Positions 4,144 to 25,777 of a stretch of 64,000 bases of DNA are shown here, in pieces; the stretch's first letter is position 1; every line of letters starts with the position of its first letter. The notes under the pieces are model-generated. The model was not told the DNA's origin and did not search any database. It saw nothing but the letters and a program-made list of their open reading frames with translations. Location of the stretch: sequence record OM867527.1; one strand, written 5' to 3'. A program made the position numbers and the translations under genes. Source of the stretch: a phage.

Positions 4144-5346
4144 ATGTTAAACTATAACGCTCCAATTGACGGTCAGAAATCTAGCATTGATGGTGCTGGT
4201 TCCGACCAGATGAATACTTATTACTGGCTGAAGAAGGCTATTATTCAGTCTCGTAAAGACCAGTATTTCATGCCTCTGGCTAACACCGTTAACATGCCGA
4301 AGAACTACGGTAAGACTGTTAAGGTGTATGAGTACGTTCCTCTGCTCGACGATAAGAACATCAACGACCAGGGTATTGATGCTAATGGTGCTACCATCGT
4401 TAATGGTAACCTGTACGGTTCTTCCAAAGACGTTGGTAACATCACTTCTAAACTGCCTCTGCTGTCAGAGAACGGTGGTCGTGTTAACCGTGTAGGTTTT
4501 ACTCGCCTGGCTCGTGAAGGTTCTATTCATAAGTTCGGCTTCTTCTACGAATTTACCCAAGAGTCTCTGGACTTTGATTCTGATGATCAACTGAAAGAAC
4601 ACCTGTCTCGCGAACTGATGAACGGTGCTGTACAGTTGACTGAAGCTGTTCTCCAGAAAGACCTGCTGGCTGCTGCCGGTACTGTACTGTATGCAGGTGC
4701 TGCTGTCTCTGATGCAACCATCACTGGCGAAGGCTCTACCCCGTCTGTAGTTTCTTATAAGAACCTGATGCGTCTTGACCAGATTCTTACTGAGAACCGT
4801 ACCCCAACTCAGACTACTATCATCACTGGTTCTAAACTTACAGATACCAAAGTACTAGGTGGTACTCGTGTAATGTACGTTGGTTCTGAACTGGTTCCAG
4901 AACTGAAAGCGATGAAAGACCTGTTCGGTAACAAAGCATTCATCGAAGTTCAGCACTATGCTGATGCTGGTACTCTGATGAATGGTGAAATCGGTTGTAT
5001 TGATAAGTTCCGTATCATCCAGGTTCCTGAAATGCTGCATTGGGCAGGTGCTGGTGCACAGGTTGGTACTAACCCGGGTTACCGTACCTCTATGGTATCT
5101 GGTCAGGAGCACTACGACGTATTCCCGATGCTGGTAGTTGGTGATGATTCCTTCTCTACTATTGGCTTCCAGACTGATGGTAAGTCTGTTAAGTTCACCA
5201 TCATGACTAAGATGCCGGGTAAAGAAACTGCTGACCGTAATGACCCGTATGGTGAAACTGGCTTCAGTTCTATCAAGTGGTACTATGGTATTCTGGTTAA
5301 ACGTCCAGAACGTCTGGCTCTGATTAAGACTGTTGCACCTCTGTAA
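4144..5346 (+). CDS. major capsid protein (N4 gp56-like)
   Basis: 400-aa ORF downstream of portal and scaffold-like genes; followed by a perfect 8-bp GC-rich hairpin, typical of highly expressed capsid genes. Confidence 0.65.
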
Positions 5347-12128: not shown

Positions 12129-15100
12129 TTGAACAGGAATCATGCTATGTCAACATTTGACCGTCTGGCAGGTTTCGCAGACAGCATCACTACTGCTAAG
12201 CAAGTCGATGTCTCTACTGCAACCTCTCGGAAACAAGCTGAACAAGGGCAAAACCCTTTCCAATTAACTCCTCAGAACGCTTACCAATTACAGGCAGGCC
12301 GTGCTGGTAACTTAGGTGCTGGTGCATTTGACCCAGGATCTATTCAGGCAGATTTTACTAATGCCTCCCCTCTTGAAATCATAAATAAGTATGGCAATGA
12401 GCAAGGAATGGGCATTCTCAATGCTCGTGTCAATGCAGCTAATGCTGTTCGTCGTGATTTAACTAAGAGTCGTACATATGGTGAAGCACTTGGTGATACC
12501 CTTTCTGGTGTTGGTCTTGGTGTTGCTAATACCCTTGGGGGCATTGCTGCTCTTGGCACAGGCTTGGTCAATGATAATGCCGGGGCATCCATTGCTTCCG
12601 GTCTTGACTGGTTGAATAAAGGAGTACACAACCTACAGTCTGATGCACTGAATGCTCGCCGTAATGTAGTACAGAACCAGAACGTAATATCTGCTCAGGA
12701 AAACGAGAAACTCTATAAGCAGGATATTGATAAAGGAGAGAGTGAACTCGTTGCTTCTCTGTCTCGTATTGGGCGTGATGCTTATGATTCTGTTGCTAAC
12801 ACTTTGTCCAATGGCATGGCTGCTACAGATGGTCTGGCTGAAGGCGTTGGTTCACTGTTTACTGGTGGTCCACTTATCCGTGGTGTATCTGCACTTGGTA
12901 AAGTAATGGTAGGTGGGGATAAAGCTGTTAAGGGCATTACCTTAGCTGCTGAATTAGGTTATCGTCCTGCACGTATTGCACAGACTGCTGGTCGTGTTGC
13001 TGCACCTGCTATAGCAATTGGTGGTATGGAAGCTGGTGGTGCATACCAACAGACTGCCAATGAAATTATGGAAATGCCATTCAGTGAACTGGCTGCTAAA
13101 TCTCCTGTATACCAACAGCATATTAAAGACGGTCTGTCTCCGGAAGAAGCACGTCGTCAGACTGCATCTGAAACGGGTATCACTGCTGCTGGCTTAACTG
13201 CTCCGGTTGCTGCTCTTACTGGTCCACTGGTATCTAAGTTTGAACTTAACCCACTCAAAGTAGGTTCACTGGCTGGTGCTGGTTCTAACATGCTGCGTGA
13301 GACTGTAGAAGAGGGTATCCAGTCTGGTACAAGCCAGCTTGCACAGAACAAGGCAATTCAAGGTAATGTAGATGCTAAACGTGATTTGCTTAAAGGTGTG
13401 GGTGAACAAGCTGGTCTTGGTGCATTGTATGGCTTTGGTTCTGCTGGAGTTGCTCAAGCTCCTGGTGCAACTGTTAAGGCTGCTGGTGCTGCCGTTGGTC
13501 CTGTTGTACGTACTACCCTGGCTGGTGCTTCTCTGGCTGGTAAGGCACTAGCAAAAGTAGCTTCCCCTATTACTAACATTCTGGTTCAACGTGGGGAAGA
13601 AGTTGCTAAGCGTAATGAACAAGCATCCCCTGTATCAGACGCTACGGTTAATGCTGCTGCACAAGAAGCTACTGCTCAGGCAGAACAAGCACAAGCAACT
13701 GTTCAGGAAGCAGTAGATGCAATGGATATTTCTCCTGAAGAGAAAGCTGCTGCTACCCAGTATGCTGCTGACTTAACTCAGGCAATGAAGTTTGGCCCAG
13801 TAGAACTGGAACAAGCTAGTCCAGTAATCCGTGAAGCTGTTTCTGGTTCCACTAACCGTGTTGAAGCTATTCAGAAGATGGCTGACCTGGTTAATACTGC
13901 TGAAGACCCTAACGTTCAAATGGAAGCTGCAATCCAGATGTATGACAACATCATGTCTATGGATAGCTTCATTAACCGTGACCCAGGTGCATTAGCTAAT
14001 CTGGAACAAGGTTCTCCTGCTGCTAATATTGTTGACCAGTTCTCCGGCCTGATGGCTAACGTTCAGAATACACCTAAGGTGCTCCGTGCATTCCGTGCTA
14101 TCCATTCCATGATTCAGGAACAGGCAGAAGCAGGTAAACTGAAAGCTACTGAAGAAGCTAACCAAGCCCAGGCAAATAATATTGCTATGGCTGCTGATAT
14201 GTCTCCAGAAGTACTGGATGCAGACTCAGTGAACATGGTTCTGAAACATGCAAGTGAAGGTAAGATTACGCTGGGGAATCGTCAGCGTGCTGCCCTGCAA
14301 TCTGCTGCTGCTCTATTGCAAGGAGCACGAGAATTTGACGCTAAAGCAGAAGAACTGGGCTTACGTCCTCAAGACATTGTTAGTAAACAGATTAAAACCG
14401 ACGAATCTCGTTCTAATGAAGGCCAGTACTCTGCGTTGCAACATGCTAAACGCATTCGTTCTGCGTACAACTCTGGTAACTTCGATTTGGCTTCCGCTTA
14501 TCTCGACGACTTTATGAAGTTCGCCCAGCACATGCAGAATAAGGTCGGAGCGTTGAATGAGCATCTGATTTCGGGGAATGCGGATAAGAATAAGTCTGTC
14601 CATTATCAGGCTCTTACCCCCTCCCGTGAATGGGTACGTAGTCGTACTGGCCTCGGTGTCAATCCGTATGATACCAAGTCTGTTAAGTTTGCCCAGCAAG
14701 TAGGACTGGAAGCCAAGACCGTAGCTGATATTGCTAACGCACTTGCTACGGCTTACCCGGAGCTTAATGTTTCTCATGTGAAAGTTACCCCATTGGATTC
14801 ACGTCTGGACAAGCCTGCTGCTCAGGTAGTTAAAGAGTTCCGTCAGGGCAATCTTGATGCTGCTCAATCCCAACAGACCAATGAACCAGTGAATCAGGTT
14901 GATGAAACTCCTGTTACGAAACAGGAACCAGTTACCCCTACTGTACAGACTAAACCTTCTGTTAGTGAAGCTGTTAAAACAGAACCTACTATTAAAGAGT
15001 CTAAACCACAGACTGTAAAAGAACCTGAGAACCAGTCTGAAAAACAGGATAATGTTGATCAGTCTACTGAATCTGAAAGAGATGCTTATGTGAAAGAGAA

Positions 15101-18100
15101 TACTATTTCACAAGATACTCTTAATAAGTACGGTGACCGTAAAGAGAGTCCTTGGCTTTTTGCAGATGGTACTGTTGTTGGTTCCAATGGTGACCACATT
15201 AGCCTGTCTGATGTATTTGGTCATGATGGTTATCGTGATATGTCATTAGATACAGGTGCTATTCGCTCTACCTTCTACAAAGGAAGCGAGCAACCATTTG
15301 TATCATTGCAACTGTTTGATAATCAGAAACTGACTACTGAACAATTCAATACTGTTCAATCATTCGTAGAAGCAAACAATGCACTGATTCAGGTTGGTGT
15401 AGATACGTCTGGACGTAATACCAATAATGTTGAGAAGCAAGAAGTATCACTGGCTCAACTGAAAGCAGACTATACAGTTGGTGGTAAACCACTCTCTGAG
15501 ATGGAAACAGTGTTCCCTGTCTATAACAACGAAAAAACACCGAACCAGTTCCTTAAAGCATTTTCTCTACCAGAAGAACCTAAGTCCCGTACCATTGGTT
15601 CTGAATCCCCTTTGACTGATGTTAAGAAAGCACTGTCTTCTGCTGCCCGTTTCGAAGCATTCACTCAAAAAGAAAATAACGCTCTCACAAGTGATGTGAT
15701 TAAGCGTTATCAGGACTTAATGGGGTTTGGTGAAACTCTGAAGACTACTTTATCTGATCGTCTGGCTAAGTTCCTTGCTAACAAGAATGTTGGTAAACGT
15801 TTTGCAGAAGGTACTGAGGCTAACCGCTGGGTAGGTGGTAAGTTACTTAACATCGTTGAGAAAGATGGCGACACCTTTAAGTTCAATGACCAATTGTTAG
15901 AGACTGCTGTACTTGCTGGTTTGCAATGGCGACTTACTGCTACCCAGAATGCTGCTGTTAAAGACATGAAAGGCGTAGCTGCCATTACTGGTGTGGAGGC
16001 ATCCTTGTTACCTGAAGGTATCCTTGCAGAGTTTGAGAATGCTCAGACCCTGGTTGAAGCTACTAACTCACTGGCTCAAAAGATTGAATCCTATTGGGGT
16101 TTGAATCGTAATCCTAATGCACCTCTTGGTTATACCAAGGGTATCCCAATGGCAATGGCTACAGAGATTCTGTCTTCTCTCATTGAGATGGGTGAAGTTA
16201 AAGAGTCCATGCTGGATGTGTCTGAAATTGATCCAGAATCTAATAAGACTGTTGGTCTGTATACCATTGAGAAGTTAGATGATAACGATGCCATTAACAA
16301 ATTCCCTACTGCTATTGAGGAAGCTGTCCTCCTAGAACCAGAAGAGAAGATGTACTTTGGTGATGACATTCCTTCCGTGGCTCAAACTCAGTTACGTAAC
16401 CCAGCTGTTAAGAATACCCCGGAACAGAAAGCTGCTCTTAAAGCTGAGCAGGCTACTGAGTTCCATGTACATATGCCGATGGTTAACTTCTATGAAGCAT
16501 TGGGTCGTGACAACATTCTGGAGCTGATGGGTGCTGGTGCTCTTAATCCTGAACTACTGAATGTGAATACCGCTAAATCTCTGGAAGGTAAAAACCTGTC
16601 CGTGTCTATGGCATATGATTCCTTGTTTGGTGTAATCAACCAGATTAAGGAACAAGAGAATGGTTTGGATACACCTATTCACTACGGTTACAACATGACC
16701 CGTGTAGGTCGTATGCAGATGCTTGGTAAGAACAACCCACAATCCAGCAAGCTGGTACGTGAAGCAATCCTACCAACTTTCTCTACCATCGACTTAAGTA
16801 ATGAAAACAGTCAAACGTTCTCTGACTTCCAGCTTGGACTGGCTCAGGCATTGGGTATCAAAGTTCATAAAATGTCCCGTGAAGTTATGTCGGATGAGCT
16901 GACTAAAGCTCTGGAAGGTAAATTGAAACCTGCCGTTGATATGATGGTTGAGTTTGATAAGTCTGGGCACTTACCTACTGATGCTGTGGATATTCTGAAG
17001 ACCTCTTTGGGTAATGATAAATCATTTGTAGCTCTCATGGCTCTGATGGAGTATGCCCGTTACTTGAACAGTGATGACCGTGCTAACTTTAATACCCCAC
17101 TGTACGTTGAAGCTGATGGTGTAACCAACGGACCAATCAACGCAATGGTATTAATGACTGGTGGTAAGTTCACTTCAGATTGGATTAAGAATACTGCTAA
17201 AGGTGGTTTGTTCTTCGGTAAAGCTGGCAAGACTATGAACGAGCATCATTCACATGAGGATAGTGTTGACCTGTATGAAGCATCCACTAATAGCCTACAA
17301 CAGGCACTGAACGAATTACGTAATACTTATCGTAACAACGTTCCTGTTACGAACCAGATGAAGCATCTCCAGAAGTTAATGGACCTATTCATTAAAGACT
17401 TCAATCTTAAGGAAGATGGTACTCTGGACCTGAAACGCGGTATCGCTAAAAACCCACTGACTATCACCATCTACGGTTCAGGTGCTCGTGGTATTGCTGG
17501 CAAGATGGTAAGTGCAATTACTGATGTCATCTATGAACGCTTCAGTGACGTTCTGCAAGCCCGTGCTGCTGACCCTAGCATTTCCCCGGCTATGGCAATG
17601 TTTGGTAAGGAGGCTGCATCTGAAGCTGACGCTCAGGCTATGCTGGATACTTTCCTTACTTCTATGGAAGCACTGACTGGTAATGTTCCGGTTATGCGTA
17701 AAGGCGAGCTGTCTATTCAGCAGGTAGAAGGTGCTCTGACCGGTAAATTAGACCCTCAGAAGTTTACTGTATCCGGTAATGCTCTGAAGAACTTACAAGA
17801 GAACATGCTTCACTTGTTCGTTGAGCCAATGCGTACTGGTATCCGAAATACTGTTGGTGAAGGTCTGATGTACTCTACTGAAAATTTGCAGAAGGCTACT
17901 CAGATTCAATCACTGGTATTGCAGGATATGTTCCAACAGGCAGTACAGGCTAAACTGGCAGAAAAAGAAAAAGACCCAACATGGAAGAAGGGTGATTTCT
18001 TAACGCAGAAAGAACTGAATGAAATCCAGGAATCATTATCTCCACTGGCTCCAATGATTGAGACTGGTTCCCAGACTTTCTATATTGCTGGTAGTGAGAA

Positions 18101-21100
18101 TACTGATGTTGCTAACCAAGTACTGGCTACTAACTTAGATGACCGTATGCGTGTGCCAATGAGCATTTATGCTCCTTCACAGGCAGGGGTTGCAGGTATT
18201 CCATTTATGACCATCGGTACTGGTGATGGCATGATGATGCAGACGCTTTCTACTATGAAAGGTGCTCCGAAGAATACCCTGAAAATCTTTGATGGTATGA
18301 ACATCGGTATCAATGACATTACTGATGCAAGCCGTAAAGCCAATGCGGCTGTATATACTTCCTGGCAGGGTAACCCTATCAAGAATGTTTATGACTCCTT
18401 CTCTAAGTTCATGAAGAATGTAGACTTCAGCAAACTGTCCGATGAAACCAAACAGGCTATTGCTAAGTCTGCTCTGGAATACGACCAACGTGAAGGTGCT
18501 ACTGATGACCTGTTGCGTGTTGGTGCTGAACAGATTGAACGTAATCTGCGTAACATTGCTCTGGGTGTGGATATTCGTCACAAGGTAATGGACCGGGTAC
18601 AGGTTACCGTTGACCAGATGGCTGCTGTTGGTGCTCCTTATGTGAACAACGGTAAAATCTCTCTGGATGGTCTGACTATTGACCAGCAGGTAGCTAAGCT
18701 GAACGAACTGTTTGATGCTGAATTAAACAAGCGTCGTGATGCAGTACGTGCTTCTAAAGCAGAGCCAACGAAGGTAGAACCAGCGAAAGAAGTGCCAGTG
18801 GTTGAAGTACCTGCTATGGAGAAGGTTGGTCGTGTACTGAAATCTGGTGTACGTCTACTGTCTAATACTGCCATTACTAAACTGGCTAAAGAGATGTCTC
18901 CTGAGCAGCAAGCAGTATTGAAAGAGATACAGAAATCCCTTGTTGCTAAAGACTACAAGGTTGTTTACGGTACACCTTCTCAACTGGATGCTTACGCTAT
19001 TGAGAAGAACATTACTCGCCCAGCACCAGAAGATATTGAAGCTGCTGAAGCTGGTAATGCATACGGTTGGACTAACTTTGAAGATAAGACCATCTACTTA
19101 GTCACCCCTTCCTTAGAGACTCTGGTTCATGAATTAGTACATGCTTCTACTTTTGAATCTGTACTGGCTCACTATGAAGGTACTCCTAATGAAGCTGTCC
19201 AGAACATTGAAGACCTGATGAACCAGTTCCGTACTCTGGATGTTAAGGATGAATCTCCGGCAGTACGTGAAGCATATGCCGATGCACTGAATACCATTAA
19301 TGGTCATCTGTCCAATGGCTTCATTGAACCAGCAATGGCTAAAGCTGCTGCTCTGAATGAGTACATGGCCTGGGGTTTAACCAACCGTGAACTGATTAAT
19401 AAGCAGAAGAAAACCACTGCACTTAAAACTATGGTTCAGGCTGTATATGAGGCGATCAAACGTCTAGTATTTGGACGTAAGAAAGCTCCGGCTAATGCAG
19501 ATGATATGTTCTCTGGCTTACTGTTTAACTCTGCTGTAGTAATGCGTGGACAAGCTCCTACTGCTGCTGTAGCCAAAGACACTACCCTGTTCCATAACAA
19601 AGCATACGGTAACAATACTCGTCTGGAAGAGTTAGGGAAAACCTTCGATAAGCTGATTACTGACTACATTGGTTCAGAACCAGTACAGCAAGTAATTCGT
19701 AAAGGTAAGTTCTCTGATGCAGTAGTAAATGCAACTAAAGTAACTCGTGATGTTCAGGCTCATGGCTTCACCATGAATATGCAGGAACAACGCCTCTTTA
19801 CTAACATTGTTGCTGCACTAGCTACCGAGGCTGCTATTAACCCTGCTGCTATGGCTCGTGCACAGGAATACTACACACATGTTACTAAGAACCTGACCGT
19901 TGAAGCGTTCATGGCTGACCCGGATAGTACTAACCCTGCTGACCGTTACTATGCACAGCAGAAGTTTGACACCATCATGGGTGCTAACAACATTGAGTTT
20001 GATGCACAAGGTCGTTCTTCCTTACTGCCTACCTTTGTTGGTCTGGCAATGGTAAGCGAAGAGGTACGTAAGGTACTGGCTGACATTCCTGTTATGAAAG
20101 CAGATAAGAAATCAGGCAATACTGTTGATGCAATGCTGACTAACATCGGTACTGCTGCAATGGCTAGTCTGAATGCTCGTGTAGCAGGTGATACTAAAGC
20201 CACTAACGTACAGGAAGGTATGGATGCACTGGCTCAGACAATCATGCAGACCAGTCTTAATGCAGAGTCCTTCTATGATTCCGTTGCTACTCCTACCGGT
20301 AATGCTATTGACCGTGCTAACCAGTATCTGGTGGATTCTATTGATGCACTGTCTACCCGTGCTTTGGAAGGTGCTCGTGAAGTTGCAGCTAATACCAAGA
20401 ACCCACTGGTCAAAGGTGCTGCTCATGCTGCACAACTGATAGCTGCTATTGCTACAGAGAAGAATGGTTCAATTGTAGCTGAAGGTGTTATGGCTGCAAT
20501 GAACCAGGGTAGAGTATGGCAACCTTTCCATGACCTGGTTAATGACATAATCGGACGTACTAAGAGCAATGCTTCTGTATATGATTTGATTAAGGCAGTA
20601 CGTGCACAGGTACAGGCTGACCGTCAGCAGTTCCGTGAACACTTGCCTACCACTATCGCATCTAAGTTCAGCCGTAAGCTGACTAATGATGAGTGGAAAG
20701 CAATGCATACCGGTATGGGTAAAACTGACTTAGCTGTTCTGCGTGACACCATGTCTCTGGCTGAAATCCGTGACCTGTTGACTGACCAGAAGATTGTTGA
20801 CCGTGAGGTTAATAAACTGGAAGCAGATTTGCAGAAACAAGCAGGACGTAACTGGCCTCTGATTAATCGTAAATCTAAGCAACTGGCTCAGTACATGATT
20901 AACGGTACGGTCGGAAATAACCTGCTGCGTAATGCTACTGCAATTTCTCGTTTACTGGGTGAACGTAAGACTACACGTTCTGTTGTAGATGTAGCTCAAC
21001 TGGATAAACTCATTACCCTGTATGCACTGGAAGCAATGAATAAGACTGACCGTGAGATGTTATCTTCGCTGGCTCAGACAGAAATTGAAGGCATGGACTT

Positions 21101-22931
21101 TGCTACTTCTTACCTGGTTGGTCAGCGTAAGGATGAAATGGCTAAAGCCAAGTCTGATTCTCGTGCAACCATGAACCAGTACAAAGGGTATATTCCTGGT
21201 GAAACTAAACAAGGAGTTAACCTGATTGTTGCTGAAGATAGTCAGTTTGCTGATTTGATTGAGAAGTCTTATGTGCGACTGGGTACTTATCAGGGTAGCT
21301 CTGCTAACCGTGGTTCAGCACGTAGTTACTACTTTGCACCAGTACAGGCACAGGCTCCATTCTCGCAGGGTATTCTACAGAACGTTCGTAATACTGCTGG
21401 TGGTGTAGACCTTGGTACAGGCTTTACGATGGGAACCATGGTAGCTGGTCGTATTACTGACAAACCTTCCGTAGACCGTATCACTAAAGCACTGGCTCGT
21501 GGTGAACGTGGTAATGAACCACTGCTGCCTGTATATGATGCCAATGGTAATGTGGTTGCTTACGAGCAATCCATTGACCCTAACATGCTGAAGCACATTG
21601 AAGGTGAGAACCATCTTGCTCGTGCAATTGGTGTATGGCGTGGTCGTCAGGTGGAAGAAGCTAAGGCTCAGCGTTTCAACGATATGCTGATTGAGAATCT
21701 GCATAGTATGTACGAGAACGACATTAAGATGTCTGCTTCTAATAAGTCCCAGTACGTTAACCTTCTTGGTTCTAAACTGGACCCAGTAACTGCTGATGCT
21801 CTTAAACTGATGAACAGTGAAACTCGTCAGAAAGCGGAAAGTCTGTTTGGTCCGGGTGAGCTGTGGGTACGTCGTGACATGCTCAATGATGCTCTAGGTT
21901 ATCGTGCAGCTTCTGTTGGTGATGCCTGGTCTGGTAATTCTCGTTGGTCACCAGAAACACTAGATACCTTCAAGAAAGCTATGTTGGGTGTCTTCGGCAA
22001 CCGTGCCTATAAGTATGTAATGGGTGGTGAGAACCTGGTTCAGAATTTAGTTAAAGAAGCTAAGACTCTGATTGTAGTTAAATCGGTGGTTGTACCTGCT
22101 GTTAACTTCCTGGCTAACCTTTACCAGATGGTTGCTCGTGGTGTACCTGTTAAGAACATTGCTAAGAGCATCCCACAGAAAACTGCTGAGATTAACCAAT
22201 ACCTGAAATCTCGTCTGCGTCAGGTAGATGCAGAAGCAGAGTTACGTGCAGCTACTAACCCGAACCAGATTCGTAAGCTGAAGGCTGAGATTCAGTCCAT
22301 CACAGATAGCCATAAGCGTTTGAGTATCTGGCCTCTGTTGGAAGCTGGTGAGTTCTCTTCAATTGCAGATGCTGGTATTGGGCGTGATGACATCCTGATT
22401 ACTGAAGGTAAGATTCAAGAATACATGGGTAAGCTGGCCGATAAGCTGCCTAAATCTGTACGTAATGCAGGTCGTTATGCACTTATCACTAAGGATACTG
22501 CTCTGTTCCAGGGTATCCAGAAGACGGTTGAGTACTCTGACTTTATCGCTAAAGCAATCATCTATGATGAACTGACTCAGCGTAAAGGTAAGACTCGTGA
22601 AGAAGCACTAGGACGTGTAACGGAAGAGTTTATTAACTACGACCGTTTACCGGGTCGATTCCGTGGGTATATGGAAAGTGTTGGTCTGTTGTGGTTCTAC
22701 AACTTTAAGATTCGTTCCGCAAAAGTTGCAGTGTCCATGATTCGTAATAACCCAGTACATGCTGCTATGGCTATGTTGGCTCCAACTCCTACCATGTTTG
22801 GTAACGTTGGTCTGCCTATTCAGGACAACATCTTTAGTATTGCTGCACAGGGCAATCTCGGTTACTCCTTCGGATTCGGGCAAGGCTTACGTGCCCATAC
22901 CCTGAACCCTTGGCTCAACCTCACTAACTAA
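12129..22931 (+). CDS. virion-encapsidated RNA polymerase (vRNAP, N4 gp50-like), 3600 aa
   Basis: Single 10.8-kb ORF. T7-like single-subunit RNAP motifs read directly: TRVGR (R1528), motif A EADGVTNGPINA (D1663), motif B RGIAKNPLTITIYGSG (R1770, K1774, Y1782), motif C KIFDGMNIG (D2055). All five align at one constant offset (+1104) to the N4 mini-vRNAP residues R424/D559/R666/K670/Y678/D951 as I recall them. Confidence 0.92.
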   Translation: MNRNHAMSTFDRLAGFADSITTAKQVDVSTATSRKQAEQGQNPFQLTPQNAYQLQAGRAGNLGAGAFDPGSIQADFTNASPLEIINKYGNEQGMGILNARVNAANAVRRDLTKSRTYGEALGDTLSGVGLGVANTLGGIAALGTGLVNDNAGASIASGLDWLNKGVHNLQSDALNARRNVVQNQNVISAQENEKLYKQDIDKGESELVASLSRIGRDAYDSVANTLSNGMAATDGLAEGVGSLFTGGPLIRGVSALGKVMVGGDKAVKGITLAAELGYRPARIAQTAGRVAAPAIAIGGMEAGGAYQQTANEIMEMPFSELAAKSPVYQQHIKDGLSPEEARRQTASETGITAAGLTAPVAALTGPLVSKFELNPLKVGSLAGAGSNMLRETVEEGIQSGTSQLAQNKAIQGNVDAKRDLLKGVGEQAGLGALYGFGSAGVAQAPGATVKAAGAAVGPVVRTTLAGASLAGKALAKVASPITNILVQRGEEVAKRNEQASPVSDATVNAAAQEATAQAEQAQATVQEAVDAMDISPEEKAAATQYAADLTQAMKFGPVELEQASPVIREAVSGSTNRVEAIQKMADLVNTAEDPNVQMEAAIQMYDNIMSMDSFINRDPGALANLEQGSPAANIVDQFSGLMANVQNTPKVLRAFRAIHSMIQEQAEAGKLKATEEANQAQANNIAMAADMSPEVLDADSVNMVLKHASEGKITLGNRQRAALQSAAALLQGAREFDAKAEELGLRPQDIVSKQIKTDESRSNEGQYSALQHAKRIRSAYNSGNFDLASAYLDDFMKFAQHMQNKVGALNEHLISGNADKNKSVHYQALTPSREWVRSRTGLGVNPYDTKSVKFAQQVGLEAKTVADIANALATAYPELNVSHVKVTPLDSRLDKPAAQVVKEFRQGNLDAAQSQQTNEPVNQVDETPVTKQEPVTPTVQTKPSVSEAVKTEPTIKESKPQTVKEPENQSEKQDNVDQSTESERDAYVKENTISQDTLNKYGDRKESPWLFADGTVVGSNGDHISLSDVFGHDGYRDMSLDTGAIRSTFYKGSEQPFVSLQLFDNQKLTTEQFNTVQSFVEANNALIQVGVDTSGRNTNNVEKQEVSLAQLKADYTVGGKPLSEMETVFPVYNNEKTPNQFLKAFSLPEEPKSRTIGSESPLTDVKKALSSAARFEAFTQKENNALTSDVIKRYQDLMGFGETLKTTLSDRLAKFLANKNVGKRFAEGTEANRWVGGKLLNIVEKDGDTFKFNDQLLETAVLAGLQWRLTATQNAAVKDMKGVAAITGVEASLLPEGILAEFENAQTLVEATNSLAQKIESYWGLNRNPNAPLGYTKGIPMAMATEILSSLIEMGEVKESMLDVSEIDPESNKTVGLYTIEKLDDNDAINKFPTAIEEAVLLEPEEKMYFGDDIPSVAQTQLRNPAVKNTPEQKAALKAEQATEFHVHMPMVNFYEALGRDNILELMGAGALNPELLNVNTAKSLEGKNLSVSMAYDSLFGVINQIKEQENGLDTPIHYGYNMTRVGRMQMLGKNNPQSSKLVREAILPTFSTIDLSNENSQTFSDFQLGLAQALGIKVHKMSREVMSDELTKALEGKLKPAVDMMVEFDKSGHLPTDAVDILKTSLGNDKSFVALMALMEYARYLNSDDRANFNTPLYVEADGVTNGPINAMVLMTGGKFTSDWIKNTAKGGLFFGKAGKTMNEHHSHEDSVDLYEASTNSLQQALNELRNTYRNNVPVTNQMKHLQKLMDLFIKDFNLKEDGTLDLKRGIAKNPLTITIYGSGARGIAGKMVSAITDVIYERFSDVLQARAADPSISPAMAMFGKEAASEADAQAMLDTFLTSMEALTGNVPVMRKGELSIQQVEGALTGKLDPQKFTVSGNALKNLQENMLHLFVEPMRTGIRNTVGEGLMYSTENLQKATQIQSLVLQDMFQQAVQAKLAEKEKDPTWKKGDFLTQKELNEIQESLSPLAPMIETGSQTFYIAGSENTDVANQVLATNLDDRMRVPMSIYAPSQAGVAGIPFMTIGTGDGMMMQTLSTMKGAPKNTLKIFDGMNIGINDITDASRKANAAVYTSWQGNPIKNVYDSFSKFMKNVDFSKLSDETKQAIAKSALEYDQREGATDDLLRVGAEQIERNLRNIALGVDIRHKVMDRVQVTVDQMAAVGAPYVNNGKISLDGLTIDQQVAKLNELFDAELNKRRDAVRASKAEPTKVEPAKEVPVVEVPAMEKVGRVLKSGVRLLSNTAITKLAKEMSPEQQAVLKEIQKSLVAKDYKVVYGTPSQLDAYAIEKNITRPAPEDIEAAEAGNAYGWTNFEDKTIYLVTPSLETLVHELVHASTFESVLAHYEGTPNEAVQNIEDLMNQFRTLDVKDESPAVREAYADALNTINGHLSNGFIEPAMAKAAALNEYMAWGLTNRELINKQKKTTALKTMVQAVYEAIKRLVFGRKKAPANADDMFSGLLFNSAVVMRGQAPTAAVAKDTTLFHNKAYGNNTRLEELGKTFDKLITDYIGSEPVQQVIRKGKFSDAVVNATKVTRDVQAHGFTMNMQEQRLFTNIVAALATEAAINPAAMARAQEYYTHVTKNLTVEAFMADPDSTNPADRYYAQQKFDTIMGANNIEFDAQGRSSLLPTFVGLAMVSEEVRKVLADIPVMKADKKSGNTVDAMLTNIGTAAMASLNARVAGDTKATNVQEGMDALAQTIMQTSLNAESFYDSVATPTGNAIDRANQYLVDSIDALSTRALEGAREVAANTKNPLVKGAAHAAQLIAAIATEKNGSIVAEGVMAAMNQGRVWQPFHDLVNDIIGRTKSNASVYDLIKAVRAQVQADRQQFREHLPTTIASKFSRKLTNDEWKAMHTGMGKTDLAVLRDTMSLAEIRDLLTDQKIVDREVNKLEADLQKQAGRNWPLINRKSKQLAQYMINGTVGNNLLRNATAISRLLGERKTTRSVVDVAQLDKLITLYALEAMNKTDREMLSSLAQTEIEGMDFATSYLVGQRKDEMAKAKSDSRATMNQYKGYIPGETKQGVNLIVAEDSQFADLIEKSYVRLGTYQGSSANRGSARSYYFAPVQAQAPFSQGILQNVRNTAGGVDLGTGFTMGTMVAGRITDKPSVDRITKALARGERGNEPLLPVYDANGNVVAYEQSIDPNMLKHIEGENHLARAIGVWRGRQVEEAKAQRFNDMLIENLHSMYENDIKMSASNKSQYVNLLGSKLDPVTADALKLMNSETRQKAESLFGPGELWVRRDMLNDALGYRAASVGDAWSGNSRWSPETLDTFKKAMLGVFGNRAYKYVMGGENLVQNLVKEAKTLIVVKSVVVPAVNFLANLYQMVARGVPVKNIAKSIPQKTAEINQYLKSRLRQVDAEAELRAATNPNQIRKLKAEIQSITDSHKRLSIWPLLEAGEFSSIADAGIGRDDILITEGKIQEYMGKLADKLPKSVRNAGRYALITKDTALFQGIQKTVEYSDFIAKAIIYDELTQRKGKTREEALGRVTEEFINYDRLPGRFRGYMESVGLLWFYNFKIRSAKVAVSMIRNNPVHAAMAMLAPTPTMFGNVGLPIQDNIFSIAAQGNLGYSFGFGQGLRAHTLNPWLNLTN

Positions 22932-22937
22932 ATGAAA

Positions 22938-22970
22938 AAGCCCCTCATTAGAGGGGCTTTAATTTTATTG
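22938..22970. terminator. bidirectional rho-independent terminator between convergent genes
   Basis: 10-bp stem AAAGCCCCTC/GAGGGGCTTT, loop ATTA, A-tract upstream and T-tract downstream; lies between the vRNAP stop and the stop of the minus-strand gene 23041-23433. Confidence 0.6.
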
Positions 22971-23040: not shown

Positions 23041-23433
23041 TCAGATTGTACAACCACCACCGTCACAGGTGTTGTTTTCTACAAAGGAAGCCAAAGCCTT
23101 AGCAGTCTCTTCTTTTTCATGAAGTGCCTGACGTAGCAGGTAACCTTCTAATTCCCAAATCTTATTGAATGCATTTTCATATGCATACTGACGACCTTTT
23201 TGCTCATCATAGATAGCCGGGTCTACACAGGCAGATACGCCTTCAACTTTGAAGCCATTCTCCAGGATGATAATGCAATGGGTTGTCAGACCCAGGTTAG
23301 CCAAATCATCTGCTGGGAGAGCAGAAGGGTCAACGAATGCAGACTTCACTGCATCAGCACCATTGAAATAGTAAACGCTCTTAATCTTAGCTTCGATTGC
23401 TTCTTTACTTACTGTTGCCATTATTAGCCTCAT
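23041..23433 (-). CDS. hypothetical protein (130 aa)
   Basis: Last gene of the minus block; GAGG RBS about 8 nt upstream of the ATG. Confidence 0.5.
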   Translation of the reverse strand: MRLIMATVSKEAIEAKIKSVYYFNGADAVKSAFVDPSALPADDLANLGLTTHCIIILENGFKVEGVSACVDPAIYDEQKGRQYAYENAFNKIWELEGYLLRQALHEKEETAKALASFVENNTCDGGGCTI

Positions 23434-23480
23434 AGAGTGGTTTGAATTTGTACTTAAACATGATTGCGTTCATCAATACT

Positions 23481-23510
23481 CAAATAAAAAAGTCCCTCCG
23501 AAGAGGGACT
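23481..23510 (-). terminator. rho-independent terminator (minus strand)
   Basis: Minus-strand reading: AGTCCCTC-TTCG-GAGGGACT followed by TTTTTTATTTG. Confidence 0.55.
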
Positions 23511-23737
23511 TAGTAGCTTTAACGCAGCTAACGAGGCTAGGCCAGTTAACTATTACCACCGGTGCTTGTACCAGCAAACAGGATTGATAGTCCGATAATA
23601 GTTAACTGTAATTGAGCATTATAGTCTGCTCATACTCACACCGTTAGGTATGTTTACAATAACTAGAGTGCCGGACTGTCTCACCGGCATTGTCTTTAGA
23701 GTGCAATGCAATCAGGACTATGTTCTCTATTAATGAG

Positions 23738-23822
23738 TACCCACTACTGGATTTGAACCAGTGACCACAGACACCTTGTTCTCTCGAAGCTTTCCTGCGC
23801 TCTACCACTGAGCTAAGTGGGC
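23738..23822 (-). tRNA. tRNA-like gene with non-canonical anticodon region (possible pseudo-tRNA)
   Basis: Minus strand: 7-bp acceptor stem GCCCACT/AGTGGGT, canonical D-arm GCTC-AGTGGTA-GAGC, T-arm ACTGG-TTCAAAT-CCAGT. The 35 nt between D- and T-arms cannot be folded into a 5-bp stem / 7-nt loop anticodon arm in any register. Confidence 0.4.
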
Positions 23823-25336
23823 ATAAATAGGCGAGTCATGCCAGACTTTAACTGGCTCCTTCTTCGCAATCCTTACATACCCCTACATAATTATTGCGTT
23901 AAGCTTTTTTGTTTAAGTTTAAATGAAGGCGTTCTTGCTGACTCATAATTAGGTTTCCTACTTGCATGGGCTTCCACCATATCATGACGAGTTTGAGACT
24001 GCGGAGCGTCTACCTCTATGCTGTTACCAGCCACCGGTAAACCGGCGTTCTGTGGTCCATCGTCTTCAATCATGTTGTCTTAACCATATAGGGATTCAGG
24101 CAACTATGACGGCAAGTAGGAAATTGGTATTAATGTCTTGGTTTCATGAAGATTTTAGGTTAAGTGTACCAAGACATCAAATAAGGTGGGCGTTTGACGA
24201 ATGACTAGTTCGTTACTACCCGTTTGCCATAAGTACCTGGCGACTTCAAATAACGGGGGATGGAATCGAACCACCAGTATTAAGTCTTATTCGTGCACCA
24301 AGCACGCTAGTGGTTTTACCCACCGGAGGGAATCGAACCCCATCTACTTCACCAGACCCGTCTTAATTCTTCCAATTCAGGGTAGCACTGTCGAGGTGTG
24401 TTCTTTGAATGCCAGGAAACATTTAAAGATACAGTGCTACTTTGAATTAATTGCCAGGGATTTCACCTGGCTCCATCTGTTTTTATAGTCACTCAGATAT
24501 CGTCTGGACTTTGATAGTACAACCTATCAAAGAGTACACTAAGCACAGGTAGCTACCCTGCCGTCTTCTCCACCTACACCGGCTACAGTGTAAACCTCCG
24601 CACGTTAGCCTAATGTACTCATTGATAGGATGTCATAATAGGGGAGGGATGACGAGTCCCTCTTTACCCTATAATTTAGTTTACATGTAAGACCTAACAT
24701 CTCGATGCTGGATGAATAGCTTAATGAACTATCCGACATTATTGGTTAATGTTGTGCTCAACACGAGCGTTAGTTGATAAGGGATCTGAAGCCTTATCCT
24801 AAAGATACTAACCTTTGGGATATAGCCTAAGATTCAGAAATGGCCTCTATAGGGAGAGGCCATTGATTAACCCGAATGTTGCTTTACATTTGCTGTGATA
24901 ACCCATTCTTAAAATAGTCTACCTGACGGATGGGCATAAACCCTAGCGTCAGTGCCATACGGCAAAGATTAAGTTAAGAATGGTTATGATAGGAGTTCCT
25001 ATCTCAAAGGATTCTAACAGAACCCTTCACGATATTAACTATTCAATGTGAAATTCTTTGTTTCCTTCAACAGGTTCTACATCCAAGAAAAAGCTAACTT
25101 TTCCACTTAGTTTAGATTGAACCAATGGACTGGGGAGAGTATTCCAATCCACTGGTTCTGTTGTTGTTACTCTGGCGGCTTGTCACCACCGTTTTTATCA
25201 CTGAGTTTCCAAAGTATAAGCACAGTGATGATAAATGCTATGTATGGAGCCGACACGTCCAGAATCCTGATAAGCAATAGCATCAGAATTACGAACACTA
25301 CCACAAATAGCAGCAGCTTCTGAGCCACCTACCAGA

Positions 25337-25777
25337 TTAACTACGTTTAAGGCCAGCGAACAGCGAAGGCTTAGTAGCAGGTTTCTCTGCTGGTTCTTCA
25401 GCCTTAACTTCTTCCTGCACAACTTCTTCTTGTGCTTCTGGTTCAGATACTGCTTCTTCTTCAGGTTCCGGCGTAGAATTCCCGTTCGGACCACCAGTAG
25501 AGGTCTGGGTTTCTTCTACCTTTAGCTCTCCAACTACTTCTTCCGGCTCCGGTTCTACCGGGCGGTGTTTGGCTTCTTGAGGGTTCTTACGGGAACGACG
25601 AGTTTTCTTCTCTACTCCCACGGGTGGAGTATCTTCATGAACCTCTTCGTTGATACCAACGGAGGCAGTACCATCTGCATTGATGACAATATTAATGTCA
25701 CCAGCAAGATTGATTTGATCATCGACATAAGCTTGTACAGCAGCTTCTACTTCGGACTGGTTCAAAATGATTTGCAT
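25337..25777 (-). CDS. hypothetical acidic protein (146 aa)
   Basis: ORF on the minus block; Glu/Pro-rich C-terminal half. Confidence 0.45.
   Translation of the reverse strand: MQIILNQSEVEAAVQAYVDDQINLAGDINIVINADGTASVGINEEVHEDTPPVGVEKKTRRSRKNPQEAKHRPVEPEPEEVVGELKVEETQTSTGGPNGNSTPEPEEEAVSEPEAQEEVVQEEVKAEEPAEKPATKPSLFAGLKRS

Follow-up and report, generated by a model that had tools for sequence, protein, structure and literature searches.

The window analysed here is a stretch of 64,000 nucleotides (sequence record OM867527.1) with 100% identity to Escherichia phage HK2, a G7C-like relative of N4. Its longest run without an open reading frame of at least 100 amino acids covers positions 23434–25336 (1903 nt), the second longest comprising 1144 nt. 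A sequence-only reading of this DNA had described this region as an ORF-free island of 1.9 kb. This is correct for frames of at least 100 amino acids, but 25167–25328 (minus strand) codes for a protein of 53 amino acids with two hydrophobic helices, and the statement that no credible ORF is present had to be abandoned. The frame is stop-free in N4, SPSP, Moo19, JZBo1, L119 and Bp4 (62–87% amino acid identity in tblastn), the substitutions that separate it from N4 show a codon-position bias (24 at third, 16 at first and 10 at second positions) and the product matches phrog_19025 with E = 9e-10. Judged by these comparisons 25167–25328 is a genuine membrane-protein gene, annotated neither in HK2 nor in N4, that forms the right end of the island and lies outside its non-coding part. 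The latter comprises approximately 23434–25166 (~1.73 kb), which means that the observation of an empty island is confirmed in part.

Since this gene was indeed missed and miscellaneous small ORFs are annotated at the locus in GenBank records, the island might be regarded as a series of overlooked small or frameshifted protein-coding genes, but we consider this extremely improbable. An open frame in diverged relatives together with codon-position bias was found for 25167–25328 alone. In close relatives the ORFs of 37, 60, 80 and 95 amino acids are broken by stops, frameshifts or deletions, and the two ORFs annotated in the HK2 GenBank record are among those interrupted by stops or frameshifts. 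The small ORFs annotated across the locus vary from record to record, and RNA helices covary across them.

The island is syntenic with the gap between gp47 and gp48 that houses tRNA clusters in N4, SPSP, Moo19 and JZBo1. At its position N4, Moo19 and other relatives possess four to five tRNA genes (Asn, Ser, Thr and Pro in N4; Ile, Gln, Pro, Asn and Tyr in Moo19), and Gamaleyavirus relatives have tRNA-Ile(AAU), “tRNA-OTHER” and pseudo-tRNAs recognised by ARAGORN only. HK2 corresponds to an N4-like tRNA cluster in slot, strand and closing terminator, and the modules M2 and M5 (see below) as well as the small membrane-protein gene are found in N4 itself. The intrinsic terminator at the end of the RNA cluster (23490–23511, minus strand) consists of a 9-bp stem with five G–C pairs, a UUCG loop and a following T-run, is located just upstream of the gp48-like gene and is conserved in relatives and in N4. 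The sequence-only reading had already placed a minus-strand terminator here, and the comparison with syntenic N4-like regions that it had proposed revealed both the tRNA-cluster position and conserved non-coding blocks.

Unlike the N4-like clusters, the HK2 locus is longer, is full of non-tRNA modules and lacks any gene accepted by ARAGORN, which found no tRNA in the island; a canonical tRNA is absent from HK2. With introns allowed and lowered thresholds ARAGORN returned only an absurd tRNA-Leu with an intron of 1291 nt and other low-score calls, which were rejected. From the recommended ARAGORN and Rfam scans only the second was productive: between 23300 and 25500, at E up to 10, the generic tRNA model alone matched above chance level (53.9 bits at 23738–23822) and GOLLD, ROOL, C4 and tmRNA models did not. 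In 26 related loci searched at relaxed E (0.01 and 1) only the generic tRNA model and chance-level matches appeared. Matches to STnc100 and Phe_leader are an artefact of the terminator, and those to tmRNA_permuted and Hammerhead_3 elsewhere are sub-threshold. A tmRNA is also not indicated by the relatives, in which 33 bits (gathering score 47) are reached in a segment that is absent from HK2, the HK2 region itself giving no match. A scan for sigma-70 promoters gave eight against 6.1 expected, i.e. chance level.

The lone Rfam-positive gene, here designated M4 (23738–23822, minus strand), is tRNA-shaped, its acceptor, D and T arms being normal. The alignment spans model positions 1–71 at 53.9 bits versus a gathering score of 29, as for a tRNA cloverleaf, and both the 7-bp acceptor stem and the TΨC-type T arm are recovered by RNAfold. 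In its “anticodon” arm of 30 nt a 4-bp stem is followed by an asymmetric internal loop and a UUC/GAA helix that is capped by a GAGA tetraloop. Instead of a 5-bp stem with a 7-nt loop and U33 there are 24 nt against 11 in the model, and the 4-bp stem encloses 22 nt in place of the anticodon loop. ARAGORN rejects M4 whether introns are allowed or not, and a molecule folded as predicted cannot decode. We take the C-GAGA-G cap to resemble the top of the sarcin-ricin loop of 23S rRNA.

Vi01 and Det7 have the same arm on another acceptor stem, which is compensated; it also occurs in the T5-like EP_H11 and, within a non-tRNA cloverleaf, in lambdoid prophages. Three acceptor stems fold around it, namely GCCCACU/AGUGGGU in M4, the fully compensated UGCUUCA/UGAAGCA in the Vi01-like gene and UGUGGUG/CGCCACA, and the tetraloop varies between GAGA, GGAA and GGGA, all of them of the GNRA type. 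The arm is present in 107 of 5426 E. coli genomes, and a scan with one genome per species gave a single chance match in a Bacteroidaceae coding region. The Ackermannviridae gene annotated as “pseudo tRNA ... possible 15 bp intron” (DET7_194 in Det7; “tRNA-OTHER” in Vi01-like records) has the D arm, T arm and 30-nt arm of M4, shows 93% identity to it over 70 nt and is also located within a tRNA cluster. The pseudogene label is not supported, and an interpretation of the insert as tRNA intron was rejected: it is conserved, GNRA-capped with GNRA-only variation, occurs also in a non-tRNA scaffold and reveals no fitting splice-type motif. About 15 nt upstream of M4, in a block with 97% conservation, lies M2′ (23837–23863, minus strand), a hairpin GGAGCCAG-UUAAAGU-CUGGCA that is paralogous to the 3′ hairpin of M2 (direct repeat D1, 80%). 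By eye, N4 has GUUGG-UAAGAAU-CCAAC at this position.

M2 itself (24443–24511, minus strand) is an element of 66–69 nt in which an A-rich linker connects the P1 hairpin to a T-loop-like hairpin (loop UGRAAUC). Its alignment comprises 26 distinct sequences with 37 invariant columns; the pair types in P1 are CG (13), UA (10), UG (2) and AU (1), the 3′ hairpin contains three covarying pairs, and 93% of the cells are paired versus 18–41% with slid partners. The corresponding model (R2) gives 89 bits on the HK2 copy, and M2 has no match in Rfam. It was detected in 86 IMG/VR loci and 104 phage records and is shared with Kuravirus and many temperate phages and siphophages, and none of these copies is annotated as RNA.

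Some features of M2 suggest that the modules could be cis-acting processing or transcription signals instead of RNAs active in trans, guiding cleavage, protecting adjacent RNAs or allowing polymerase readthrough, with M2 for example acting as a tRNA 3′ trailer or antitermination element. M2 invariably starts 3–5 nt past an acceptor 3′ strand, be it that of a tRNA or of an acceptor-like stem, M2′ lies ahead of M4, and the copies of M2 and of the M4-type cloverleaf carried by temperate phages occur in promoter-proximal leaders (after cI, or in the interval from Q to the lysis genes, ahead of terminators). Such a role is possible, though we regard it as rather unlikely for HK2, whose cluster has no ordinary tRNAs or mRNAs to serve and in which M3, M4 and M6 each form a closed tRNA-like unit complete in itself. 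A relationship of M2 with the put antitermination RNAs of HK022, which occupy similar positions, was rejected, as the M2 model matches nothing in HK022 between 24 and 31 kb.

M3 (24247–24366, minus strand) is a tRNA-like RNA of 120 nt with five helices: a 6-bp acceptor-like closing stem surrounds four hairpins, two of which have TΨC-type loops (UUCGAUU), one a variable and often GNRA-capped tip and one a UUGGU loop. The alignment A3 is based on 14 sequences from Gamaleyavirus, N4-like phages of Klebsiella, and the T4-likes VR5, PEi20 and L121. In it 99.5% of the cells are paired (41–57% with slid partners), double changes are seen at 13 of 26 pairs and the covariation score is 0.548 against 0.05–0.11 in the control. 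The model built from it (R1) yields 130.8 bits on the HK2 copy and about 20 bits on real tRNAs. With five helices in 120 nt and no match to the Rfam tRNA model at E up to 10, M3 differs from the canonical four-arm cloverleaf of ~76 nt with anticodon loop. In VR5 and PEi20 it is located between tRNA-Met and tRNA-Arg.

The 72-nt element M5 (23661–23732, minus strand; alignment A5) has three helices with double changes at 11 of 19 pairs, 90% of cells paired (25–45% with slid partners) and a covariation score of 0.536. It is limited to the N4 subfamily (Enquatrovirinae), where it directly follows the last tRNA or tRNA-like gene, and a pattern scan of IMG/VR gave eight loci, seven on N4-like contigs of ~70 kb and one on a fragment of 8.2 kb. 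M6 (23954–24123, minus strand) is closed by a 12-bp stem (inverted repeat I7, 12/12 complementary), to the 3′ strand of which a T-loop-like hairpin UAUGG-UGGAAGC-CCAUG is adjoined. It belongs to an insertion of HK2 (23950–24179) that is missing from all ten relatives compared, and has homologues in the IMG/VR locus L117, where the ORFs spanning M6 are interrupted by stops, and in Klebsiella phage YMC16/01/N133 (Casjensviridae).

Besides these modules there are further hairpins and blocks, all given for the minus strand. M1 (25119–25158), a hairpin of 15 bp located just after the 53-aa gene, shows compensatory double changes at 8 of 15 pairs among relatives; it has no T-run behind it and is likely a transcript-end or processing hairpin. 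A 137-nt block with a predicted multi-hairpin fold (24894–25030; local MFE −50.9 kcal/mol) is 94–98% identical in nine relatives with stems almost free of substitutions and is partly common to Kuravirus XT32; an extended −10 match of the sigma-70 type (25011–25038) overlaps it, such matches occurring at chance frequency. The adjacent block of 94 nt (24780–24873; 94–97% identity) includes a 20-bp imperfect hairpin with one compensatory pair and a 10-bp hairpin, 24839–24864, whose stem is invariant in relatives and of which the inverted repeat pointed out earlier (24842–24862) is a part. The second hairpin singled out in that reading (24640–24662) is present as 24637–24672, though its pairs are disrupted in several relatives (79–84% identity); according to blastn against ECBP1, Bp4 and St11Ph5 it marks the junction where relatives hold an ARAGORN-only “tRNA-Ala(cgc)”.

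A block of 116 nt (24518–24633; MFE −49.7 kcal/mol, 95–99% identity) is framed by inverted-repeat arms of 26 nt (I1), the 3′ arm of which also pairs downstream in a 9-bp hairpin, 24507–24531, that abuts M2 and has the position of the acceptor-like stem preceding M2 in other phages. Between M2 and M3 a long hairpin (24374–24448; inverted repeat I2, 18-nt arms enclosing a second 9-bp hairpin) takes the place of a pseudo-tRNA cassette, “Cys(aca)/Undet”, found in relatives, the deletion junction having been mapped, and exhibits one compensatory pair and several disruptions. The 67-nt block 24180–24246 (97–100% identity in relatives) has at its 3′ end a second copy of the M3 3′ tail (direct repeat D2). 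Near the left end follows a variable spacer (23539–23660) with a hairpin of 13–15 bp (23543–23608, I5); in some relatives, among them nithesis, the spacer is missing or other sequence has taken its place. The blocks 24894–25030, 24780–24873, 24518–24633 and 24180–24246 have too few substitutions for covariation testing of their folds and could represent DNA-level or protein-binding signals.

Judged from these alignments, at least four RNA modules (M2, M3, M4 and M5) and the hairpin M1 are shown to be kept by compensatory substitutions, with changes far above the slid-partner controls for the four modules and one hairpin. This bears out the earlier suggestion of structured RNAs; the other suggestions made with it fared less well, so that its interpretation as a whole is partly supported. 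A replication origin had been proposed as well. An origin, or another element acting as double-stranded DNA, would fit an extended non-coding region that is rich in inverted repeats and flanked by convergent and divergent transcription units. However, there are no iteron families and the direct repeats are two-copy matches of 15–20 nt only. GC content is 0.38–0.46, with both a sharp AT-rich dip and a skew switch absent, and the modules are found in tRNA clusters and operon leaders of unrelated phages. Moreover, the compensatory changes include many G–U pairs (in M3 e.g. at columns 5–121, 26–40, 43–64 and 99–113), which are A–C mismatches on the opposite strand and have a meaning in a minus-strand RNA alone. 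Selection therefore acts on this RNA, and an origin appears highly implausible.

Large non-coding RNAs that are conserved and highly structured, GOLLD and ROOL, are located beside phage tRNA genes, and the island could in the same manner be a single multi-domain RNA instead of a set of separate small ones. About 1.7 kb of contiguous conserved non-coding DNA with one strong terminator, predicted long-range complementary arms (e.g. 23727–23740 with 24615–24628, I6) and the association with tRNA-like units would be compatible with this. In contrast with GOLLD and ROOL, whose Rfam models gave no match at E up to 10, the island is modular and has separately distributed parts: the modules differ in their phylogenetic distribution and occur singly in other phages, and relatives gain or lose entire cassettes between them. 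One large RNA is consequently improbable. M3 is shared with T4-like phages, the M4 arm with Vi01-like, T5-like and lambdoid phages and M6 with a Casjensviridae phage, a distribution which shows, as far as genome comparison goes, that the modules are separate, portable units.

The cluster is clearly labile in part when related genomes are compared, whole cassettes having been gained or lost and the hairpin 24637–24672 being broken. The sequence-only reading had mentioned decayed tRNA genes, and a decaying tRNA cluster, i.e. functionless pseudogenes and spacers awaiting deletion, would explain several observations. The cassettes tRNA-Ile(AAU), “Cys(aca)” and “Ala(cgc)”, present in relatives, are missing from HK2, ARAGORN finds nothing, cassettes vary among close relatives, a homing HNH endonuclease resides inside the same locus in ZQ2 and G7C, and certain hairpins are disrupted. 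The part of this claim that refers to tRNA genes is supported by synteny, but decay is mostly wrong. In an identity profile over ten relatives the non-coding blocks are 94–98% identical versus ~90–92% in the flanking genes (close relatives of HK2 show about 90% identity), so on sequence identity these blocks are conserved at least as well as the neighbouring genes. In M3 and M5 stems are kept by double substitutions at 11–13 pairs per module with 90–99.5% of cells paired, which is not the behaviour of neutral pseudogenes. In addition the M4 arm was retained in three scaffolds with a tetraloop that is GNRA-only, and modules were retained across unrelated phage families, although in some cases this sharing could reflect recent recombination and not selection. 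Simple decay is thus unlikely.

The non-coding part (~23434–25166) is probably a gene cluster for tRNAs and small RNAs of the N4 subfamily that consists of tRNA mimics encoded on the minus strand. No RNA of the cluster has a 7-nt anticodon loop and, therefore, none would have a decoding role. One or a few precursors would be transcribed from the cluster, along with the middle genes or later, and in these units composed of an acceptor-like stem and a T arm may be recognised by the tRNA-processing enzymes of the host, with RNase P acting at the 5′ side and RNase E or Z together with exonucleases at the 3′ side. Cutting would give rise to stable RNAs of 70–170 nt, and M2, given its start 3–5 nt past the acceptor 3′ strand, may be released as a trailer-derived RNA. 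Most likely the products would be tRNA mimics in which a non-tRNA arm, such as that of M4 with its GNRA cap, is exposed to a host factor. They might serve as decoys or sponges that occupy nucleases directed against tRNA, enzymes of RNA processing or modification, or small RNAs. No target and no target pairing was found for any HK2 module, and literature searches in the library used retrieved neither a description of the module RNAs nor a transcriptome of HK2, G7C or N4.

Usually phage tRNA clusters are seen as a codon supply or as a replacement for tRNAs cut by host defences. In the cluster of HK2 decoding was abandoned and strong purifying and compensatory selection persists. Selection without decoding makes it likely that the non-tRNA passengers, a kind known since RNAC and RNAD of T4 and never explained, are the selected product. 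In this context one paper presents phage tRNAs as counter-measures to defences that target tRNAs (PMC10264068).

The tRNA region of T4 gives rise to two small RNAs with unknown roles, RNAC and RNAD (PMC3014915). They and the HK2 modules, the latter known from sequence, are alike as non-tRNA small RNAs within a phage tRNA cluster. By eye T4 rnaC ends with a T arm and an acceptor-like 3′ strand, and ACUUAAUA is found before the T arm in both rnaC and M3. Homology of M3 with rnaC or rnaD is not supported, as model R1, run on T4 69500–74500, gives no match on either of them (E up to 1) and blastn none; in contrast with rnaC and rnaD, M3 of VR5 and PEi20 does not lie downstream of tRNA-Arg.

A sponge RNA derived from a tRNA precursor is 3′ETS-leuZ. 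Other sponges, the prophage anti-sRNAs AgvB and AsxR, titrate host regulators (PMC4104026). Genes of the AgvB class are located downstream of PR′ in lambdoid prophages, and the M4-type cloverleaf is found in the same region. Copies of M2 in temperate phages are followed by CACAAC(A), which corresponds to the consensus of GcvB R1 targets (PMC4104026) and is absent from the M2 of HK2. Unlike the HK2 modules, AgvB-class RNAs do not resemble tRNAs; they are primary transcripts of 51–60 nt, each ending at a terminator of its own.

The lambdoid cloverleaf that bears the M4 arm is located after cI in some prophages and recalls phage immunity RNAs. C4 of P1 and P7 and CI of P4 are such small structured RNAs, processed by RNase P and equipped with variable specificity loops. 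Antisense immunity in the style of P4 CI or P1 c4 was nevertheless rejected, as within 4 kb of 56 scaffold copies the longest match was 8.46 nt versus 8.19 nt for shuffled cargo. In the P1-like D6 the frame is located in the tRNA region, and its annotated neighbours include no immunity gene.

The frame of this cloverleaf, GUGGUGARUGCGCAGGCUGAUGCGC ... GCCGGAGAUCAGCACCGGCCACCAC, carries 57 different inserts of 12–162 nt among 86 copies, positioned where the M4 arm is found, in lambdoid, T1-like, P1-like and other enterobacterial phages. A probe for it matches 1026 of 5426 complete E. coli genomes (~19%). From this a broader view can be tentatively put forward, to which we attach a rather low probability: the modules might form an undescribed class of tRNA-scaffolded phage RNAs with exchangeable arms that act as decoys or sponges and are traded across families. 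The tRNA machinery of the host would process and stabilise a conserved tRNA-like frame on which a non-tRNA arm is displayed and can be exchanged, the GNRA-capped insert of M4 being one of these arms, and the targets could be host nucleases directed against tRNA or rRNA in defence, or host small RNAs. The widespread elements (M2, M4 arm and cloverleaf frame) provide defined candidates for decoy or sponge RNAs of phages that can be tested.

Apart from the generic tRNA match of M4 no module matches Rfam, and the only feature annotations seen for modules are “pseudo tRNA” and “tRNA-OTHER” on the Ackermannviridae copies of M4. The modules cause misannotation in the form of spurious small ORFs, a “pseudo-tRNA with intron” and inconsistent tRNA calls in near-identical genomes.

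The DNA corresponds to Escherichia phage HK2 (PP514361.1; 100% identity across the interval queried), which belongs to Gamaleyavirus, the genus forming the G7C-like branch of Schitoviridae, the family of N4. The island at 23434-25336 is the gap between the minus-strand homologues of N4 gp48 (23041-23433) and gp47 (25337-25777); to the right of gp47 follow, on the same strand, a gp46/RuvC-like gene and the gene of a single-stranded DNA-binding protein, and on the other side the plus-strand gene of the 3600-aa virion RNA polymerase (12129-22931) ends at 22931. Here, we show that this island contains a terminator-bounded cluster of portable RNA modules under structural constraint. In most of these modules a T-type hairpin adjoins the 3' strand of an acceptor-like stem, and an anticodon loop is absent from all. 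In the HK2 GenBank record the virion RNA polymerase gene is named "DNA polymerase". For the gp48 homologue the ATG at 23421 (MATVSKE...), which the HK2 record and relatives use, is a more probable start than the upstream ATG at 23433 of the ORF list, and a perfect 10-bp bidirectional terminator (22937-22960) separates this gene from the convergent virion RNA polymerase gene.

The sequence-only reading of the interval as an ORF-free island with a minus-strand terminator and inverted repeats was largely right. At 1903 nt it is the longest stretch of the 64-kb window free of ORFs of 100 aa or more (the runner-up has 1144 nt), but it is not devoid of genes, since a protein of 53 aa with two hydrophobic helices is encoded at 25167-25328 (minus strand). 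This gene is uninterrupted in N4, SPSP, Moo19, JZBo1 and others (62–87% amino acid identity), shows 24/16/10 substitutions at codon positions 3/1/2 if compared to N4 and its product matches phrog_19025. In the remaining island ORFs, including two annotated in the HK2 record, stops or frameshifts arise in close relatives. The terminator is present at 23490-23511 with a 9-bp stem, a UUCG loop and a T-run, and both inverted repeats named were found.

The proposal of structured or tRNA-related RNAs is borne out, as the gap is a tRNA locus in relatives and contains modules with covarying helices. ARAGORN detects tRNA-Asn, Ser, Thr and Pro in the 1.5-kb gp47–gp48 gap of N4 (without annotation in RefSeq), and SPSP, Moo19 and JZBo1 have 4–5 tRNAs there. 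Gamaleyavirus relatives possess one good tRNA-Ile(AAU) of 62–65 bits, a 40.7-bit "tRNA-OTHER" and the tRNA-like "Cys(aca)" and "Ala(cgc)", both accepted by ARAGORN only. Because the tRNAs of relatives sit here and ARAGORN finds none in HK2, the island is the tRNA locus of the subfamily in a genome that gave up canonical tRNAs. In a blastn map two cassettes are gone from HK2, Cys(aca) at 24510/24521 and Ala(cgc) near 24635-24642, and an insertion (23950-24179) missing from all ten relatives compared has been gained. The sole well-scoring Gamaleyavirus tRNA (L002:1305-1378 in ECBP1, with equivalents in Bp4, nithesis, ZQ2 and PW8) has the anticodon AAU; A34 is unusual for an Ile tRNA of bacterial type. 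In HK2 and pSb-1 its D and anticodon arms are exchanged for the arm of module M4. An HNH homing endonuclease gene lies inside the locus in ZQ2 (L012:2264-2761) and G7C (HQ259105), between the equivalents of 25118 and 25140; this fits a cassette-like turnover and has a parallel in segB of the T4 tRNA cluster.

With regard to conservation, strand and the DNA-level ALTERNATIVES, neither decay nor a replication origin, both offered by the sequence-only reading, agrees with the data. The blocks 23850-23949, 24200-24250, 24450-24600 and 24750-25050 are 94–98% identical to ten relatives, compared with ~90–92% for gp47 and gp48, and pieces of the island are also common to unrelated phage families. No iteron families and no AT-rich dip were found in the island, which makes an origin unlikely. 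G-U pairs are frequent in the supported helices (in module M3, for instance, four pairs are G-U in 7–13 of 14 sequences). On the plus strand each would turn into an A-C mismatch, so that selection acts on the minus-strand RNA. Strong folds are also predicted for 24894-25030, 24780-24873, 24518-24633 and 24180-24246, blocks with very little variation among relatives.

M4 (23738-23822, minus strand) is a tRNA-shaped gene (Rfam tRNA, 53.9 bits) in which 24 nt stand where the model expects 11 in the anticodon arm; this RNA cannot decode. Its acceptor and T arms are those of the relatives' tRNA-Ile(AAU), while its D arm and the 30-nt arm CAGGAAAGYUUCGAGAGAACAAGGUGYCUG are those of a gene in Vi01/Det7-type Ackermannviridae and in the T5-like EP_H11. 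The Vi01/Det7 gene differs in its acceptor stem, fully compensated, and is annotated in Det7 as "pseudo tRNA ... possible 15 bp intron". In lambdoid prophages the arm recurs within a cloverleaf whose D-like and T-like arms are quite different; of 5426 complete E. coli genomes 107 contain the arm, either in the interval between the Q antiterminator and holin genes or in the early-left leader after cI. Its tetraloop (GAGA, GGAA or GGGA) is GNRA without exception, atop a UUC/GAA helix. An arm conserved across different scaffolds with a tetraloop that is always GNRA rules out an intron or debris, and the insert is thus a conserved structured extension. The C-GAGA-G cap resembles the apex of the 23S sarcin-ricin loop.

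M3 (24247-24366, minus strand), with two GGUUCGAUUCC motifs, folds into a 6-bp acceptor-like stem around four hairpins; an unannotated tRNA-Met/tRNA-Arg spacer in the T4-like phages VR5 and PEi20 shares ~80% identity with it. In an alignment of 14 distinct versions (Gamaleyavirus, Klebsiella N4-likes and three T4-likes) 99.5% of cells are paired versus 41–57% for slid (shifted) partners, 13 of 26 pairs show double substitutions, and the covariation score is 0.548 (slid controls 0.05–0.11); shuffling reached the observed values in 0 of 500 cases. The covariance model gives its own family 118–137 bits and ordinary tRNAs ~20 bits, and does not detect T4 rnaC or rnaD. M5 (23661-23732, minus strand), a three-helix element found in all Enquatrovirinae loci examined, has 11 compensatory pairs out of 19 (90% of cells paired versus 25–45% slid); a pattern scan of IMG/VR yielded eight loci, seven on ~70-kb N4-like contigs and one on an 8.2-kb fragment. 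The further minus-strand modules are M1 (25119-25158), a hairpin of 15 bp, 8 of them compensatory, that follows the small gene; M6 (23954-24123), which is closed by a perfect 12-bp stem with a T-loop-like hairpin adjoining the 3' strand, lies within the insertion missing from ten relatives and has homologues in one IMG/VR contig and a Klebsiella phage of Casjensviridae; and M2' (23837-23863), which is paralogous to the 3' hairpin of M2 and located just upstream of M4.

M2 itself (24443-24511, minus strand) has a core of ~66 nt, AGUCCAGACGAUAUCUGAGUGACUAUAAAAACAGAUGGAGCCAGGUGAAAUCCCUGGCAAUUAAUUC, nearly invariant in N4 and G7C-likes, Kuravirus XT32, 60-kb Klebsiella siphophages, Salmonella phage 9NA and many ~40-kb temperate phages. 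Copies were counted at 86 loci of IMG/VR and in 104 phage records, none with an RNA annotation for it. The first helix covaries (CG 13, UA 10, UG 2, AU 1), as do three pairs of the T-loop-like hairpin, and 93% of cells are paired (18–41% slid); for the central AUCUG a second pairing is indistinguishable from the first because both are invariant. M2 always starts 3–5 nt past the 3' strand of a tRNA or acceptor-like stem, in HK2 a 9-bp hairpin (24507-24531). In temperate phages it follows cI and a promoter, ahead of a terminator, or else lies next to tRNAs. Many of these copies (IMG/VR loci L035–L119, e.g., L035:9039-9110) are directly followed by CACAAC(A), which is missing in the HK2, N4 and Kuravirus copies. 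The prophage anti-sRNA AgvB is defined by this CACAAC(A) motif, the R1 target consensus of GcvB (PMC4104026). In HK022 the M2 model finds no relative.

The cloverleaf carrying the M4 arm in lambdoids, GUGGUGARUGCGCAGGCUGAUGCGC-[insert]-GCCGGAGAUCAGCACCGGCCACCAC, is a conserved frame with a hypervariable central insert. It was found in at least 120 IMG/VR loci. Copies lie, e.g., at L023:4030-4130 (minus strand), L131:2985-3070 and L132:2475-2570, and upstream of M2 in L062, L004 and L116, and the 86 complete copies among the matches listed contain 57 different inserts of 12–162 nt, ten of them the GNRA arm. A 38-nt probe matches 1026 of 5426 complete E. coli genomes (248 plasmid places included) and 165 phage records from many families; no RNA feature is annotated under the matches listed and the frame has no Rfam match. 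Acceptor variants still pair via G-U wobbles, and no complementary target for the inserts was found inside 4 kb. In P1-like D6 the frame is located in the tRNA region, in some Gamaleyaviruses (nithesis) immediately before M2. Between a Q-like gene and the cloverleaf RNA of the lambdoid contig L023 a sub-threshold type III hammerhead ribozyme match (4307-4368, minus strand; 30.5 bits versus a gathering score of 48.5, E = 0.0095) shows a CUGAUGA...GAAAC core.

We infer a functional role in which host tRNA-processing enzymes would cut the precursor at its tRNA-like units and the products could act as stable tRNA mimics, offering non-tRNA arms to a host factor; no target of the modules was found. 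There are two precedents: phage tRNAs are reported to counter tRNA-targeting defences (PMC10264068), and the T4 tRNA region encodes the small RNAs RNAC and RNAD with roles still unknown (PMC3014915). This type of locus is already known and relatives have tRNAs annotated, but the specific RNA families of the island appear undescribed, as judged from Rfam and the literature searched.

Related loci show further peculiarities. The pseudo CDSs for a "tail spike protein" and a "virion structural protein" annotated over the non-coding tRNA locus of Klebsiella phage K57alpha1.2 (OY979416.1) are very likely an annotation artefact. Sub-threshold Rfam "tmRNA_permuted" matches (~33 bits versus a gathering score of 47), all on the minus strand, lie within the tRNA locus of three relatives, in a segment mostly deleted from HK2 (ECBP1 L002:2254-2357, JZBo1 L021:1720-1822, UE-S5a L011:2323-2425). 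In N4 (NC_008720, 32113-33631; L022) RefSeq is blank across the gap, yet a small 2-TM ORF, M2 and M5 are found there beside the ARAGORN tRNAs. An extra tRNA-like unit at L022:3440-3560, seen by eye only, has a ~19-bp stem (AAGAACUCUUAUUUUGGUU / AACCAGAGUAAGAGUUCUU) with the T-arm UUAGG-UUCGAAU-CCUAA adjoining its 3' strand.
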